A stretch of 64,000 bases of DNA. Source: Escherichia virus TH43. The notes under the pieces are model-generated. The model ran no database searches and was not told the DNA's origin. It saw only the letters and a program-made list of their open reading frames with translations. Made by a program: the position numbers and the translations under genes. Where the stretch lies: sequence record MT446414.1. One strand, 5' to 3'. Position 1 is the first letter of the stretch; every line of letters starts with the position of its first letter. Positions 1,165 through 59,534 of the stretch are shown here, in pieces.

Positions 1165-1386
1165 TTGTTTAAGAGGTGGGGCGAACTTCTTTATAAGGAT
1201 GTGAATATGTTTTCAGCAATCGTATGGTCTGTGTGGGCAATTCTTGTTGGTGGTATCGTTTATCTGGCTCAGAAACAGATGCTTAAAGAAAATCCGAATG
1301 ATGCTAAACCCATTAAACATGGCAGCATTGCTCTGGTAATTTTCTCTGTTGTCATTCCTTTCCTTCTCCACCTGTTGACTGCATAA
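1165..1386 (+). CDS. small membrane protein (alternative start 1207); paralog of the next ORF
   Basis: hydrophobic helices; RBS AAGGA before ATG 1207. Confidence 0.45.
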   Translation: MFKRWGELLYKDVNMFSAIVWSVWAILVGGIVYLAQKQMLKENPNDAKPIKHGSIALVIFSVVIPFLLHLLTA

Positions 1387-1395
1387 GGGTTTGAT

Positions 1396-1581
1396 ATGAT
1401 TTCACTGATTGTGTGGGCCGTGTGGTCGTTAATAGTTGGTACTGTTATATATAAAGCTCGAAATTTAGCAATTAAAGAAAACCCAGCAGAAGAGGATGTT
1501 AAAGCTATCAAGCTAGGTAGTGTTGTTCTGGTACATTTTGCTATAACACTACCTCTTGTTATTATTCTTTGTATGCTGTAA
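1396..1581 (+). CDS. small membrane protein; paralog of 1165..1386
   Basis: shared VW-x-W..LVGG..Y.A....KENP...K.IK.GS pattern. Confidence 0.45.
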   Translation: MISLIVWAVWSLIVGTVIYKARNLAIKENPAEEDVKAIKLGSVVLVHFAITLPLVIILCML

Positions 1582-9359: not shown

Positions 9360-9752
9360 ATGAAGATTGGCTTAGATTATGACGACACTTTTACAGCGGA
9401 CAAAGAGATGTGGACACATATCATAGGACTTATGAAGTCCCGTGGTCATGATGTTCGTATCGTGACTTACCGATTCGCTGAACCTAATGGGTATACAAAT
9501 GAAGAACTACTGGCAGATGCTGCTAGTCTAGATATCCCGGTTATCTTTTGCAATGGTGTTCAGAAGGATTCTGTTACCCAGAGCTTAGGTTTCTTTGTGG
9601 ATGTTTGGATTGATGACTTCCCTGTTGGTATTCCTAAAATGGACCACCTAGAAGGGATGCTGAAGGGCGTAAGACTTAACGACCTTAGAGCAGCACCTCC
9701 AGTAGAAATAGCTTCTCCTGTGTACTCTGAAGAGCCTCTGGTGATACGATGA
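9360..9752 (+). CDS. HAD-superfamily phosphatase-like protein
   Basis: HAD motif I LDYDDTF and motif IV WIDDF. Confidence 0.5.
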   Translation: MKIGLDYDDTFTADKEMWTHIIGLMKSRGHDVRIVTYRFAEPNGYTNEELLADAASLDIPVIFCNGVQKDSVTQSLGFFVDVWIDDFPVGIPKMDHLEGMLKGVRLNDLRAAPPVEIASPVYSEEPLVIR

Positions 9753-9928
9753 AAAAGTTCCTATGCTGGTCTATTGCCATTGCTCTATTTCTTTGGGTGA
9801 TGGATGCTCTTGGAGATTACAGTAAAGAAGATTGCGAGACTCGAATCTCAAAAGAGTTTAAATCAGAGACCAAGTGGGTTGACGGTCGCTGTTACATCAA
9901 GGATTGGGGGAGAGTCTTATCAAGATGA
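9749..9928 (+). CDS. small secreted/membrane protein (59 aa)
   Basis: manual translation MKKFLCWSIAIALFLWVMDA...; ATGA overlaps. Confidence 0.35.
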   Translation: MKKFLCWSIAIALFLWVMDALGDYSKEDCETRISKEFKSETKWVDGRCYIKDWGRVLSR

Positions 9929-12557: not shown

Positions 12558-12583
12558 TAGCCACCTTCGGGTGGCTTTTTTCG
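12558..12583 (+). terminator. rho-independent terminator
   Basis: AGCCACC-TTCG-GGTGGCT perfect hairpin plus TTTTTT. Confidence 0.65.
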
Positions 12584-12594
12584 TTGGAGTTAAA

Positions 12595-12942
12595 ATGGAA
12601 AAGCTTCAAAACAATATCGGCTTCTTAGTCTTTACAGCCCTTGTATTCTTTGGTGGGATGAAGTTTGAGCAATATCGAAATGATAGTAACACTCTTGACC
12701 AAGAGAAGAAACAACAAGAGATTGAGATTGAGAGAGCTAAGGCTGCTGATGAAGTAGCTCAGAAAGTTCTTACCAGTATAACCAACTGGAAGAAGAACAC
12801 AGAAACTGTTTATAAAGAGATGCATTATGAGAAGACTAAGCCAGTTTTTTACAATGTGTGCGCTAGCGATGAGTATGTCAGCTTGTTCAACGAGCGACAA
12901 CAGCAGGCAGCTAATGCCCTTACCAACAAACCTAAAAGCTGA
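12595..12942 (+). CDS. i-spanin-like protein (N-terminal TM helix, periplasmic coiled coil)
   Basis: TM IGFLVFTALVFFGG then a charged coiled-coil region. Confidence 0.45.
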   Translation: MEKLQNNIGFLVFTALVFFGGMKFEQYRNDSNTLDQEKKQQEIEIERAKAADEVAQKVLTSITNWKKNTETVYKEMHYEKTKPVFYNVCASDEYVSLFNERQQQAANALTNKPKS

Positions 12943-13087
12943 GTGTGATGTTGATCTCCCTTTGCTTCAGAGTGCACAGGGAGTGGCATTTGCAACGACA
13001 TTAGAGTGGTATCAGGATAATTATACAACCTGTGCTGCTAATCATAATGGTTTACTGAAAGCTCTCAAGGAGAGAGGAATACAATGA
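12854..13087 (+). CDS. o-spanin-like secreted lipoprotein candidate
   Basis: signal peptide MCALAMSMSAC; Pro-rich with Cys residues; starts inside 12595..12942 in a different frame. Confidence 0.4.
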   Translation: MCALAMSMSACSTSDNSRQLMPLPTNLKAECDVDLPLLQSAQGVAFATTLEWYQDNYTTCAANHNGLLKALKERGIQ

Positions 13088-31655: not shown

Positions 31656-32147
31656 TTAGTATTTACCTGTGGTGTATAGGTCTGCTTCTGCAACCCTTCG
31701 GTTGTGAAGTCCCGGACTCTGTTGTTTTACACCTCTGACTGTTATTTTATCCCAACGGAGGAATTCAGAATAAACATCACCCTTCACATCTCCGTTAATA
31801 ACTTTCCTAAGTTTAGAAGTTGATAAAGCCCCACCACCAACGTTGAAATTGAAAGAGGTGAGAGCATCAAACTCGTGGGTTAACAAAGGAACCCTAATAT
31901 TTTTCTGAGTAGCACGAACAGAGTCTTGTGTGTCTCTATCTAGCAGAGCTAGACAATCCTCTATAGAATACGTTAATCCCTGTCTAACTGGATACCCATT
32001 CATATCGCGCGTAGCCCCAACACATATCGTCCAGATACCTGCGGAATCTCGGTAAGCACGAGTTCTCATACCTTCATGCTTCATGATGAATTCCATCCCT
32101 TCTGGGCTTAAGCTCAGTTGTATCGGTGGCAATGCGACATTATCCAT
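31656..32147 (-). CDS. lysozyme (GH24, T4/lambda-type endolysin)
   Basis: EGMRTRAYRDSAGIWTICVGAT catalytic region. Confidence 0.75.
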   Translation of the reverse strand: MDNVALPPIQLSLSPEGMEFIMKHEGMRTRAYRDSAGIWTICVGATRDMNGYPVRQGLTYSIEDCLALLDRDTQDSVRATQKNIRVPLLTHEFDALTSFNFNVGGGALSTSKLRKVINGDVKGDVYSEFLRWDKITVRGVKQQSPGLHNRRVAEADLYTTGKY

Positions 32148-32177: not shown

Positions 32178-32396
32178 TTACTGAAGCATATTTCTCAGAG
32201 CACTAGAATCAGAGTCCGGACAAATAACCACAAGATTATTTTGAATTGTACGCTGCTTACATAATGCACTCAATTTCTCAATTGGTGCAGGTTGTGTTAC
32301 CAGAGGATGCACTGCGTTAACAGGAACAGCCACTGACACAGCAAAACCGGTAGCAACACAAGCTAGCCCATAACTGATTTGTTTCATCATTTTCAT
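32178..32396 (-). CDS. small secreted protein (signal peptide)
   Basis: N-terminal signal-like MKMMKQISYGLACVATGFAVSVAVPVNA. Confidence 0.45.
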   Translation of the reverse strand: MKMMKQISYGLACVATGFAVSVAVPVNAVHPLVTQPAPIEKLSALCKQRTIQNNLVVICPDSDSSALRNMLQ

Positions 32397-32491
32397 CTTT
32401 GTATCTCCTATGTGTATTCCTTTTGTGATATAGTAGTTTCATTACTTCTTGAACATACTCACTACTAAAGCCCCCCGAAGGGGCTATTAGA

Positions 32492-34699
32492 TTACTTCTC
32501 TGCTAACTTAGCTTCCAACAACTCAATACGCTTAAGCAAATCTTGAACAACCTGCATGGTATCTAAAAGCATCGGAGTTGCATCCAACTCTTTCTGTTCC
32601 TGCTCTACCCCATCGTTGCCATGGAAGTTACGAGTCTTAACATAAAGAGGTTCAACTTTCTCTGCCTGTTGTGCAATGATACCACGACGAGTTCTTCCTT
32701 GTTCATCGTTGTTGTACACAAACGATTTGAAATCCAAACCTTTTATCGCACGAATTGCTTCATCAGGTGAGATATCTTGGATGTTATGTTTCAACCTTTC
32801 ATCAGATACAGGATTCATAGCAAGAGTATAAGTTCCAGCGGAACCGGGCTGCCATGTGTAATAGAAAATCTCATTTCTGTTTGGTCGAAGGGTTAAACGA
32901 CAACCGTACTTGTTGTCTTCATTCCCCGAAATATGCCAGCAGGAGTCAGCAAAAGTTCCATTATCATTATGAATCATACCAATGTGAGTTGAGGTTTTAT
33001 ACCCACCACTAGATGATTGAGCTGCACTCAGTATAGAATTGAAAGAGTAGGTATTTCCTATTGCTTGATTGTCTATAGAGAAGGTGCCTTTTTTGAATCC
33101 AGTCTCATTCCAACCCATCGATGTCCCAAACCGAGCAACATATCTATCAGAGTTCAGGGTTCCAGAATCGTCAAAAGCTAATTGCTTAGTAACTCCTTTG
33201 GTTTTATTATAAACATTGATAATCCCATAATAAGCTCCGTCGATATAAGCATCAGTTTGGAGCGTAGTAGAAGCCTCTACTTCTGAACCAATTTTATATT
33301 CAGCAACAACAGAACCACTAGAAGCTCTGGTTCCACCAGCAGGGCGATTTGCATCACTGTTAATAACACTCCAAGAAGTGTTAGCAGCAGTAAAACCGCC
33401 ATTAGCACGGATAGTCCAAACACCTATAAAGTTACGAGGTATTACGTTTGATGTAATTCCATATCTACCATAGGTAGGATCAGATTGATTAGCATCAAAA
33501 CGAATGTTAGTATAAAGACCAGCCCCTCCACTAACAGGCCATACACCTTGAGTTGATGTGGTTGAAGTGAAAGCTCCATCAGTTGCCACCTGTCCTTGAG
33601 AGCTCGCCGCTGTTAGCAGGGTATGTGCGGTATAGCCCACGATATTAGGAAGAGCTGCATCATACATCATACCGTTATTAGAAGAATTACCACCGTCGCC
33701 ACGGGCAAACAATTCTTTAAGAGACCCTGCTTGTACGCCGTTTCTATCCGGAACCCTGAAAGTGGTTGTACCATCACCAGTAGAGTATTTACCCCTCTGC
33801 TGTGCATCCGCCAACCAAGCAGCGTCACTGATTGGAGTTAAGAGTTGAGCATAAGCCCATAAATCTGGGTAGTCAGCGCGATTCAAAAGCTGTCCATCAG
33901 AGACTACCTCAAAAGCGGGGATGAAAGCACGACTGTCACGTAGGTGAAAATCACCAATACCAAAGTTAGAAATACCACTCATGGTAGGACCACCAGAACC
34001 ACCACTATTACGAAGCTGTCTCAAAGTTACTGCATCATAATCACCTACAGCATCTGCAACAGTTACTGGTTGAGTGAAGGTTACTTTCTGAGTCATCTGA
34101 GTTATATCAGAGTTAATGCCAGTACGAGTTACACCAATAGTGCGACCCTTGGAATCCTTAACATATGAACCAATAGCTGCAAAAGGGAGTTCATCAATCT
34201 CAGGACGATAGCGTTTGGAGTAGATAGGATATTTAGTTTCTACACCACCGTCATTCAAATCTACAACCTGAAGACGACCAGCAGTGTGAACTTCTACTCC
34301 CTGAACAGAAGAAGCGTAGCTACCGATTTTGATAGTGTTCTCTGGTGTAACTTTAATCATATCGACAGACTCTACACCATTAGCCCCAGCAGCGCGGAAT
34401 GGTACATCGTTAGCTACAAAAGGGTCAGATTTAAACAGAGCACCTTCCATAATAGGAGCAATAGAGTCTGCAACATAAACCTTAGTAGCACCTTCAGTTT
34501 TTGTCATATAGGTGTTTTCAGCTGCAGTCTTCTGTAAATATTTATTAGTTAGGTCGATAGCGCCAGCAACACCATCAACAGTTGAGACACCCACCACCGC
34601 AGCATCTCGGTTAATAACAACATGAGGCATCATTATGCCAGATTTGGGCATTAATTCTCTAGACATTAAAATCTCCTTAAAGCTCCCCGAAGGGAGCAT
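32492..34699 (-). CDS. tail fibre/tailspike with C-terminal S74 intramolecular chaperone domain
   Basis: C-terminal SDERLKHNIQDI...GLDFKSFVYNN and terminal coiled coil. Confidence 0.7.
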   Translation of the reverse strand: MLPSGSFKEILMSRELMPKSGIMMPHVVINRDAAVVGVSTVDGVAGAIDLTNKYLQKTAAENTYMTKTEGATKVYVADSIAPIMEGALFKSDPFVANDVPFRAAGANGVESVDMIKVTPENTIKIGSYASSVQGVEVHTAGRLQVVDLNDGGVETKYPIYSKRYRPEIDELPFAAIGSYVKDSKGRTIGVTRTGINSDITQMTQKVTFTQPVTVADAVGDYDAVTLRQLRNSGGSGGPTMSGISNFGIGDFHLRDSRAFIPAFEVVSDGQLLNRADYPDLWAYAQLLTPISDAAWLADAQQRGKYSTGDGTTTFRVPDRNGVQAGSLKELFARGDGGNSSNNGMMYDAALPNIVGYTAHTLLTAASSQGQVATDGAFTSTTSTQGVWPVSGGAGLYTNIRFDANQSDPTYGRYGITSNVIPRNFIGVWTIRANGGFTAANTSWSVINSDANRPAGGTRASSGSVVAEYKIGSEVEASTTLQTDAYIDGAYYGIINVYNKTKGVTKQLAFDDSGTLNSDRYVARFGTSMGWNETGFKKGTFSIDNQAIGNTYSFNSILSAAQSSSGGYKTSTHIGMIHNDNGTFADSCWHISGNEDNKYGCRLTLRPNRNEIFYYTWQPGSAGTYTLAMNPVSDERLKHNIQDISPDEAIRAIKGLDFKSFVYNNDEQGRTRRGIIAQQAEKVEPLYVKTRNFHGNDGVEQEQKELDATPMLLDTMQVVQDLLKRIELLEAKLAEK

Positions 34700-49954: not shown

Positions 49955-50053
49955 TTCATAAATATTTCTTGCATTGCCTGATTGCTTTCTGTATCATGTT
50001 ATTTACCTATGACATGATTTCTTATGTTGCACGTTCCTTGTAAGGGTTGGATT

Positions 50054-50380
50054 ATGAAAATTAAATTAGCTGTATGTGCTGCCTTGTTCGCTGTTTCTTC
50101 CGTGTCACATGCTGCCGTATTCAATGAGGCTAGCCTTGATGGTCTGCAATGCACCTATCTAATGGAAAATTACGACACTGGCAAAAAGTCTAGCAAGGTA
50201 GTATTGATTGACCTGAATGATTATGATCATCGTGTCGTTGATGGCAAGCATGCAATGCTAGTCAATGAAACTACAGGCAAGCAAATTACTATTGATCACA
50301 TGATGCGGTCTAGCATGACGTTGTTCGATGAGTCGATGAACGAAATAGCATCAGGTAACGGCACTTGCACCAATCCGTAA
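50054..50380 (+). CDS. secreted protein (signal peptide)
   Basis: MKIKLAVCAALFAVSSVSHA signal peptide; RBS AAGGG. Confidence 0.5.
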   Translation: MKIKLAVCAALFAVSSVSHAAVFNEASLDGLQCTYLMENYDTGKKSSKVVLIDLNDYDHRVVDGKHAMLVNETTGKQITIDHMMRSSMTLFDESMNEIASGNGTCTNP

Positions 50381-55369: not shown

Positions 55370-55675
55370 ATGACTTTAGAGGTTTATAAGCTCCTTCTCG
55401 TACTCACTGTAACGATTTCTACTCTAGGATTTATTGCTTTAAGTAATAAGTCAGCAAGCTGGAAGCGTCGTTATGAGTTCCTTCTTAAGCAAGAGGAAGT
55501 CTTTAATGCTGATATTCGTTCCAAGTTGGTCAAGATGCAGGAGCAAATTGAAGCACGTAATGATCGTTTGGCTTCTTTGGGTTGGGAGATTAAGCGTATT
55601 CAAGATCTCAATAAGCAACTCACTGAAGAAATTAAACGCCAGAATGAGGAAACAGAGGATGCGCTCAAGGGTTAA
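55370..55675 (+). CDS. membrane-anchored coiled-coil protein
   Basis: N-terminal TM helix; coiled-coil C-terminus. Confidence 0.5.
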   Translation: MTLEVYKLLLVLTVTISTLGFIALSNKSASWKRRYEFLLKQEEVFNADIRSKLVKMQEQIEARNDRLASLGWEIKRIQDLNKQLTEEIKRQNEETEDALKG

Positions 55676-58806: not shown

Positions 58807-58951
58807 ATTTTAAACAAGGGCTAGTATGGGTACGGCACCAGAGTTAGTGTATCCCTGTTGAGGCAAGTGCTTTTATAACAGTGGGAATTGCTTTCTTAGT
58901 GAGCTTCTGGTTCGATTCCAGATAGTCCACCAAATCAAATAGGAGGTGCTT

Positions 58952-59278
58952 ATGAGTTGGGGTGGTGTAATTACCTTAACCTGTATCTTTATCGCCTGTG
59001 TAGCTCTTACAGGCTGCGTACAGCATCGTCCTGATGGATGGTGTGCATTATCGGTAGAAGGTGTCTGTGTTTCCCGTTGGCATAGCGGGGAGAAGATTCC
59101 TAGTGGTGAAATTGATATGCGTTATGCTGGTGCTTCTTGTTCCAATGGCGGTGCTGTTGACGAGAAGGCTTATGCAAAGCGTGATATGGCTACCCAAGGT
59201 GATTGGTCACGTTATGACTTCATCTCCCGTGGTGAGCTGTGTGGTGGCTCTGTGACAACAACAGGTAAGGAGTGGTGA
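58952..59278 (+). CDS. lipoprotein (lipobox LTGC), Cys-rich
   Basis: signal peptide with lipobox ALTGC; RBS AGGAGG 5 nt upstream. Confidence 0.5.
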   Translation: MSWGGVITLTCIFIACVALTGCVQHRPDGWCALSVEGVCVSRWHSGEKIPSGEIDMRYAGASCSNGGAVDEKAYAKRDMATQGDWSRYDFISRGELCGGSVTTTGKEW

Positions 59279-59279
59279 T

Positions 59280-59534
59280 ATGTCCGGTCATTATTCTGAT
59301 ACGAAAGCTCTACTTGAAACAGCGGCTCAAACTTCATGCCAACAGCAAGTAAAAATGCTGTTGGTTGATATCCGTAATCTTCGTTGGCTTATTAAAGAAG
59401 GTCATCTCGGTAACGCTGCCTATTACAACGTTAAAGATATCCTTCGCCGCCAGCACTTTCTTATCCACGGAAACGTGGTAACTCGCAACTATCAATGGAA
59501 CGGTGAATGGTTACAGCAGCGTATGTCCTCCTGA
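59280..59534 (+). CDS. hypothetical protein
   Basis: ORF track. Confidence 0.45.
   Translation: MSGHYSDTKALLETAAQTSCQQQVKMLLVDIRNLRWLIKEGHLGNAAYYNVKDILRRQHFLIHGNVVTRNYQWNGEWLQQRMSS

Follow-up and report, generated by a model that had tools for sequence, protein, structure and literature searches.

The 72 aa protein encoded upstream of the lysozyme gene in Escherichia virus TH43 is best explained as a small, membrane-targeted endolysin partner in phiEco32-like phages. We judge the chances to be even that it is a membrane-anchored N-in/C-out (class III-type) holin. The protein fits the textbook picture of a holin poorly; it has a signal-peptidase-like site, its periplasmic domain is under the strongest constraint and there is no charged tail. 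It would be useful to know if a single-pass protein of 72 residues is able to act as a holin, or if it is instead a periplasmic regulator of lysis of a new kind.

The analysis covered one window, a stretch of 64,000 nucleotides. Sequence comparison places TH43 among the phiEco32-like E. coli podophages (Gordonclarkvirinae: Kuravirus, Suseptimavirus and relatives). The region has 80-85% DNA identity to phiEco32-like podophages of E. coli and Shigella. By comparison with annotated phage Paul, the late structural genes are likely to occupy the minus strand from ~16.7 to 48.9 kb. Middle and early genes would lie on the plus strand, either side of the late block. The gene and its neighbours are:

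32178..32396, minus strand: CDS of the 72 aa protein (ATG start), from the ORF list, with a match to PHROG 11161
32405..32408, minus strand: ribosome-binding site GGAG, 8 nt ahead of the start codon (G96 and A99 are invariant and the flanks variable)
31656..32147, minus strand: soluble GH24 endolysin, 163 aa (PF00959, E 3.9e-31; PHROG 7, endolysin)
32492..34699, minus strand: tail fibre, 735 aa, the upstream neighbour (Peptidase_S74 at residues 632-685, E 5.5e-14)

The first-pass annotation described a small protein that starts with a signal-like sequence and is encoded between the genes for the S74-chaperone tail fibre and the lysozyme. The ORF list, Pfam and hydrophobicity bear this out. In TH43 the protein reads MKMMKQISYGLACVATGFAVSVAVPVNAVHPLVTQPAPIEKLSALCKQRTIQNNLVVICPDSDSSALRNMLQ. 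Homologues of the gene are present in about 98 phage genomes and form 24 protein clusters of 69-74 aa, to which the TH43 protein is 64-96% identical. Overall pairwise dN/dS is 0.06-0.17 with synonymous sites saturated, indicating purifying selection. We conclude that the ORF is a genuine conserved gene and not a chance reading frame. An overlapping 41 aa ORF (32317..32442) was rejected as a gene, its reading frame being disrupted by indels in relatives. We also rejected a dual start of the lambda type (MKM), because M3 and M4 are not conserved. The gene has a recombinant, mosaic structure. Over codons 1-28, its DNA is almost the same as in phage Paul (dS 0.11), and synonymous differences between the two phages are saturated across codons 29-72. 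The joint, near codon 28/29, coincides with the boundary between export segment and mature domain.

The gene is the TH43 copy of phi32_16 of phiEco32, and the family is already known. In 2008, phi32_16 was labelled 'putative holin' in record EU330206. Other records use 'holin', 'putative holin', 'holin class III' or 'hypothetical protein'. Specialist annotators named the phage Paul copy, CPT_Paul_014, 'holin class III'; according to the note in that record, BLAST similarity to the phiEco32 entry is the sole basis for the label. The PHROG 11161 "holin" profile matches the TH43 protein end to end (residues 1-72 on profile positions 1-72, E 8e-46). All 'holin' labels in the family go back to position and BLAST, and genome papers have repeated them. 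We found no functional study of the family in the literature searched, the scope of which left out the 2008 and 2012 phiEco32 papers. In the one paper that assayed a 'holin', the phage chosen was T4-like and was not the Kuravirus also studied there. In particle preparations of phage SU10, 34 proteins were detected; the holin (CDS14) and the lysozyme (CDS15) were not among them, as expected for non-structural lysis proteins. The phiEco32 and Paul proteins are 73% and 87% identical to that of TH43, respectively; each has 72 aa and is encoded between tail fibre and lysozyme. Apart from the mosaic DNA of TH43, there is no material difference. The KBNP1711 and ECBP2 copies are 97% identical. Searches of Pfam, NCBIfam, PADLOC and PDB sequences with the 72 aa protein returned zero matches. 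When Pfam was searched at E 10 with 10 family members, no family was matched, including the holin families and Phage_holin_T.

An indication of function is the constant association with the lysozyme gene, which starts 30 nt after the stop codon of the 72 aa gene. We examined TH43, Paul, phiEco32, Bas87, SU7, 4E8, KBNP1711 and two distant metagenomic lineages. In all of these loci, the 72 aa gene is 18-33 nt upstream of the lysozyme. In the phage collection, 98 records contain the lysozyme (at least 80% identical) and 98 contain the 72 aa gene. In relatives L005, L006 and L007, the small protein is 96-97% identical and the lysozyme 92-98% identical; the fibre is 54-59% identical or almost unrelated. 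Conversely, L001 and L002 have a fibre of 80-82% identity, a small protein of 68% and a lysozyme of 91%. In the divergent metagenomic lineages, identity is 56% and 41% for the small protein and 70% and 60% for the lysozyme. Here, other tail genes are upstream, encoding a Phage_tail_C_2 or Gp53-like_C protein. These comparisons indicate that the 72 aa sequence tracks the lysozyme and not the mosaic tail fibre. The two metagenomic lineages came from an exhaustive HMM search of 1.84 billion representatives, in which two additional true relatives (P0025 and P0026) were recovered, both with the lysozyme context kept. Three other hits look spurious; two are low-complexity repeat proteins and one is a chimera-like 76 aa protein. 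The nearest outside lysozymes, those of FelixO1-like phages (~40% identity), have no such small gene upstream.

The first-pass annotation offered two roles for the protein, as a receptor blocker resembling T5 llp or as a lysis accessory. The link to lysis gains support, with a GH24 lysozyme directly downstream in every relative examined. On the sequence evidence, the tail fibre is not functionally coupled to the 72 aa gene and provides context only. The S74-chaperone fibre is highly mosaic among relatives L005-L009, the flanking genes being 76-98% identical. The TH43 fibre shares 83% identity with that of NJ01 over residues 1-481 only, and just 46 residues align with the fibre of L007. The lysozyme itself has no N-terminal hydrophobic, signal or SAR segment according to a hydrophobicity scan. 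The homologue in phage MN03 (MT129653) is annotated as a 'SAR-endolysin'. This label is probably wrong, since the TH43 lysozyme, 91-98% identical, has no hydrophobic N-terminus.

The 95 nt spacer between the fibre and the 72 aa gene contains two conserved elements:

32465..32490, minus strand: GC-rich stem-loop directly after the tail fibre stop codon, conserved in 7/7 relatives
32427..32447, minus strand: conserved intergenic block AAGTAATGAAACTACTATATC, largely invariant across 7 divergent relatives

Both elements are kept even in the metagenomic lineage with 56% protein identity. The stem-loop (MFE -13.7 kcal/mol, z -1.83) may be a terminator-like or RNA-stabilising element. Its T-run is weak and, hence, it was not called by a consensus terminator scan. 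The promoter element consensus for the phage sigma factor gp36 is AATGTA (PMC12276001). The block AAGTAATGAAACTACTATATC contains AATGAA, a 5/6 match, which was set beside intergenic AATGTA sites within the window. The block is a possible variant gp36 promoter. Together, the stem-loop and promoter-like block suggest that the lysis pair has its own expression level inside the tail gene operon.

Other genes in the window have a known or potential part in lysis:

12571..12942, plus strand: i-spanin, Rz-like (PHROG 1152, E 9.5e-36; Paul homologue annotated i-spanin)
12827..13087, plus strand: o-spanin lipoprotein, lipobox MSAC (phrog_2425; homologous Paul position annotated o-spanin)
1207..1386 and 1396..1581, plus strand: tandem phrog_9296 paralogues of 59-61 aa, each with two hydrophobic segments (2 TMDs)

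The spanin genes overlap, and lie in the middle gene block just upstream of the phage sigma factor gene. They are about 19 kb from the endolysin gene and on the opposite strand. Hence, with spanins in the middle block and endolysin in the late block, the lysis genes are split between two temporal classes. Genes for phrog_9296 are found in 97 phiEco32-like phage records, often as two copies, and are annotated 'hypothetical' everywhere. This core small membrane protein might be the holin instead, or a partner of the holin. The multi-TMD ORFs in the early region, at 59507 and 60820, were rejected as holin candidates; they are not core and occur in only 20-25 records. In a scan of the late gene block, the 72 aa ORF was the only small ORF found with a hydrophobic segment.

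Three further small proteins were noted. The plus strand gene at 9749..9928 encodes a 59 aa middle gene product with an N-terminal hydrophobic segment and three cysteines (phrog_14089; 66% identity to Paul), and looks like another small exported protein. At 50024..50380 (plus strand) is a 118 aa protein with a classic signal peptide, in which SVSHA precedes the cut and AVF follows it. Its PHROG 13168 label, 'terminase', looks like a mis-annotation. The gene at 55370..55675 (plus strand) encodes a 101 aa early protein that has an N-terminal TMD and a coiled-coil, an i-spanin-like architecture. The corresponding label, PHROG 12154 'DNA helicase', is probably also a mis-annotation.

We aligned first 25 and then 27 sequences of the 72 aa family, down to 39% identity. 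The protein divides into three parts:

32313..32396, minus strand: export/anchor segment, codons 1-28 (alignments, periodicity, AF2 helix)
32277..32312, minus strand: variable Pro-rich linker, codons 29-40 (alignment, dN, AF2)
32181..32276, minus strand: near-invariant exported domain, codons 41-72 (alignment, selection, AF2)

The first segment consists of an n-region (MKMMKQ), a hydrophobic stretch of 18 residues (7-24), half of them G/A/S/T/C, and the sequence P25-V26-x-A28. Across the 27 sequences, Y9, G10, C13, G17 and A28 are invariant, and S21, A23, P25 and V26 are near-invariant. There are 0 indels between Q6 and A28. Small residues recur at every fourth position (Y9/G10-C13-G17-S21-P25), a stripe still present at 39% identity. 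Consistent with this, conservation in the segment has a periodicity that peaks at 90-100 degrees (permutation p=0.007). Synonymous sites in the hydrophobic segment are saturated and, hence, constraint acts on the protein. The stripe suggests packing of this helix with others inside the membrane. As a control, we compared the exported protein at 50024..50380 with its Paul counterpart. The mature parts are 69% identical and the N-terminal export segments are unalignable.

The end of the segment matches, in sequence, the -3/-1 pattern recognised by signal peptidase I (P25-V26-x-A28). V26 is found in 26/27 sequences, with Thr in the other, and position 27 is free (N/S/G/T/A/V). The segment also has the sequence features of a Sec/signal peptidase I substrate; a basic n-region, an h-region, small residues at -3 and -1, and no Pro from -3 to +1. 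Between positions 7 and 28, 11/22 residues are G, A, S, T or C. The insertion energy of the segment, as a simple sum, is +4.1 kcal/mol over 19 residues. This is in the range of cleaved signal peptides, although lambda S and T7 gp17.5 are similar; the comparison with known holins, SAR domains and signal peptides was non-discriminating.

The linker has 0 invariant columns, the highest entropies, dN of up to 0.8 and pLDDT below 50, and is where the indels are located. The domain that follows has the consensus KLSxxCKQRTIQNNLVVICPD..S..LR. It contains 15 invariant columns, with C46 and C59 both invariant. Between clades, residues 41-61 differ at 0 nonsynonymous positions and 10-13 synonymous positions. 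With 4 K/R and 2 D/E, residues 41-72 do not form the highly charged, hydrophilic tail typical of holins. AF2 was run on the family alignment and gave a low confidence model (pLDDT 55.7). In this model, residues 3-23 are helical and residues 24-46 are disordered. Two strands (47-51 and 54-58) lie between C46 and C59, and a helix follows at 64-70. The C-terminal domain is thus predicted to be a β-hairpin between two invariant cysteines. The two Lys residues at the N-terminus and the positive-inside rule point to a periplasmic location for the C-terminal part. Here, C46 and C59 could form a disulfide.

As a holin, the protein would act as follows. The Lys-rich N-terminus would stay in the cytoplasm and residues 7-24 would cross the inner membrane as one helix, giving class III topology (N-in/C-out). 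The 44-residue C-terminal part, comprising the linker, a β-hairpin stapled by Cys46-Cys59 and a short helix, would face the periplasm. Late in infection, the protein would build up in the inner membrane. It would self-associate via the helix stripe (G10/C13/G17/S21) and possibly also via the periplasmic hairpin, through its hydrophobic LVVI strand. Once the protein reached a critical level, the membrane would become permeable and cytoplasmic lysozyme would reach the wall. The separately encoded spanins would then break the outer membrane.

A holin is expected because the lysozyme has no signal or SAR segment. The 72 aa gene is beside the endolysin gene and co-inherited with it. Its product has one hydrophobic segment (7-24/29), which may span the membrane or, given the conserved V/T-x-A motif, may be a cleaved signal peptide. 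The topology of a T-type holin, N-in/C-out, is predicted from the two N-terminal Lys residues and the one hydrophobic segment, provided that the protein is not cleaved. The conserved stripe also favours a holin, given that the control export segment (50024..50380) is not conserved. Several observations weaken the case. The segment resembles a classic Sec signal peptide, with its basic n-region and P at -4. The -1 position is invariantly A and -3 is nearly always V/T, while -2 is free, a pattern that helix packing does not readily account for. Cleavage would leave the protein without a membrane segment. In addition, the C-terminus is not a typical charged cytoplasmic holin tail, the periplasmic domain, and not the membrane segment, is under the strongest constraint, and no Pfam holin family was matched. 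Finally, the existence of phrog_9296, a core 2-TMD family, means that the argument by elimination is not clean. A precedent is the class III holin T of phage T4, which has one membrane segment, N-in/C-out topology and a periplasmic domain with a disulfide. The same features are predicted here. However, T has 218 aa rather than 72 and a cytoplasmic N-terminus of about 34 residues rather than about 6. There is no sequence similarity, and it is the 72 aa protein whose segment ends in a signal-peptidase-like site.

The main competing explanation, somewhat unlikely in our view, is that residues 1-28 are a Sec/signal peptidase I signal peptide. Cleavage between VNA and VH would release a soluble 44-residue periplasmic lysis modulator. 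It might, for example, set the timing of lysis as antiholins do, regulate the spanins or the endolysin, or bind a host envelope protein that is conserved. Another gene would then encode the true holin, with phrog_9296 an available candidate. The segment has a basic n-region, an h-region of 14-18 residues and a P-V-x-A c-region; in the 27 sequences, including the one of 39% identity, -1 is invariant, -3 near-invariant and -2 free. In the AF2 model, the helix ends at residue 23 and residues 24-46 are unstructured, so the site would be exposed. Selection is strongest on the exported domain, where the predicted hairpin lies between two invariant cysteines, an arrangement that would suit a disulfide formed in the periplasm. 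However, a conserved stripe and an invariant Cys13 in the h-region are unexpected for a disposable signal peptide, and the control exported protein of the same phages has no such conservation in its segment. The putative site comes 23 residues after the last Lys, further than the 16-18 residues of the E. coli signal peptides used as comparators. Furthermore, T4 RI has a similar predicted signal peptidase site and yet is reportedly not cleaved. For their part, the phrog_9296 proteins lack a charged tail and are predicted to expose almost nothing to the periplasm. Hence, they are neither an obvious partner nor a typical holin.

In a related scheme that we regard as improbable, the protein is a SAR-type lysis regulator. 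The segment would tether it to the inner membrane and then exit the bilayer, spontaneously or on depolarisation, as do the SAR segments of T4 RI and P1 Lyz. Release could expose Cys13, reshuffle the C46-C59 disulfide and so switch the activity of the periplasmic domain. Half of positions 7-28 are G/A/S/T/C and the insertion energy is marginal. This composition does not discriminate; the OmpA signal peptide scores similarly. The three invariant cysteines, one in the hydrophobic segment and two in the exported domain, have the layout of P1 Lyz, where they are reportedly C13, C44 and C51. The cysteine in the N-terminal hydrophobic segment is at position 13 in both proteins. The likeness is one of analogy only; Lyz is the enzyme itself and the TH43 protein is a 72 aa non-enzyme beside a soluble lysozyme. 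A second analogue is the T4 antiholin RI, which has a SAR domain and a periplasmic domain with Cys. RI is of similar size and has a role in lysis. Its weakly hydrophobic N-terminal segment has a P-x-x-A-like end and a predicted cleavage site that is reportedly unused. Conversely, the RI domain is helical rather than a predicted β-hairpin, the RI gene is not beside the endolysin gene and a T-like target holin is absent here. The case for a SAR-type regulator is one of analogy only. There is no sequence similarity to RI or SAR endolysins, the lysozyme with which the protein is paired is not of the SAR type, and we see no holin with a periplasmic domain that could serve as the target. More broadly, we consider it possible, if doubtful, that the 'holin' label is wrong. 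The timing of lysis, or the envelope, would then be controlled by a cleaved or SAR-released β-hairpin mini-protein of 44 residues, and the real holin would be an unrecognised protein (from phrog_9296, for instance). Control might operate through a three-cysteine switch (C13/C46/C59) like that of P1 Lyz.

The other role offered by the first-pass annotation was that of a receptor blocker, and this does not hold up. A receptor-blocking or superinfection exclusion factor like T5 Llp or phi80 Cor, or a periplasmic factor like T4 Spackle, is very unlikely. The 72 aa gene does adjoin the tail fibre gene and its product is exported. Likewise, a small exported protein is encoded beside the receptor-binding protein in the T5 Llp and phi80 Cor systems. 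T4 Sp is also a precedent for a small secreted protein able to act on a GH24-type lysozyme. However, the TH43 protein has no lipobox. The only N-terminal cysteine, C13 (in Y-G-L-A-C), is inside the h-region; it has Gly at -3, and its -1 residue may be A, V, L or I depending on the homologue. Identity of the 72 aa protein is uncoupled from that of the adjacent fibre, the exported domain is invariant across phages carrying different fibres, and lysozyme adjacency persists where the upstream gene encodes another tail protein. In addition, the gene sits in the late block, PADLOC gives no hit and a genuine phage lipoprotein is encoded elsewhere. Without a lipobox or co-variation with the fibre, and with a near-invariant exported domain beside mosaic fibres, a lysozyme-coupled protein of this kind is not supported as an Llp. 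The lipoprotein gene (58946..59278, plus strand) encodes a 110 aa early region protein with lipobox LTGC (PF24052, Phage_lipoprotein, E 3.8e-36). It is a better candidate than the 72 aa protein for surface exclusion of the Llp/Cor type.

A membrane-targeted endolysin partner thus remains the best explanation. The 72 aa gene is an ordinary lysis cassette gene of a well-sampled phage group, and its annotation holds no surprise. Even so, a putative label given by position in 2008 has since been passed on to a PHROG family and to the annotation of about 100 genomes. Should the label prove wrong, lysis in these phages would be controlled by a secreted or releasable, disulfide-stapled hairpin protein, which would be moderately interesting. 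Kuravirus-like phages are under development for therapy against pathogenic E. coli, and knowledge of lysis timing would be useful.
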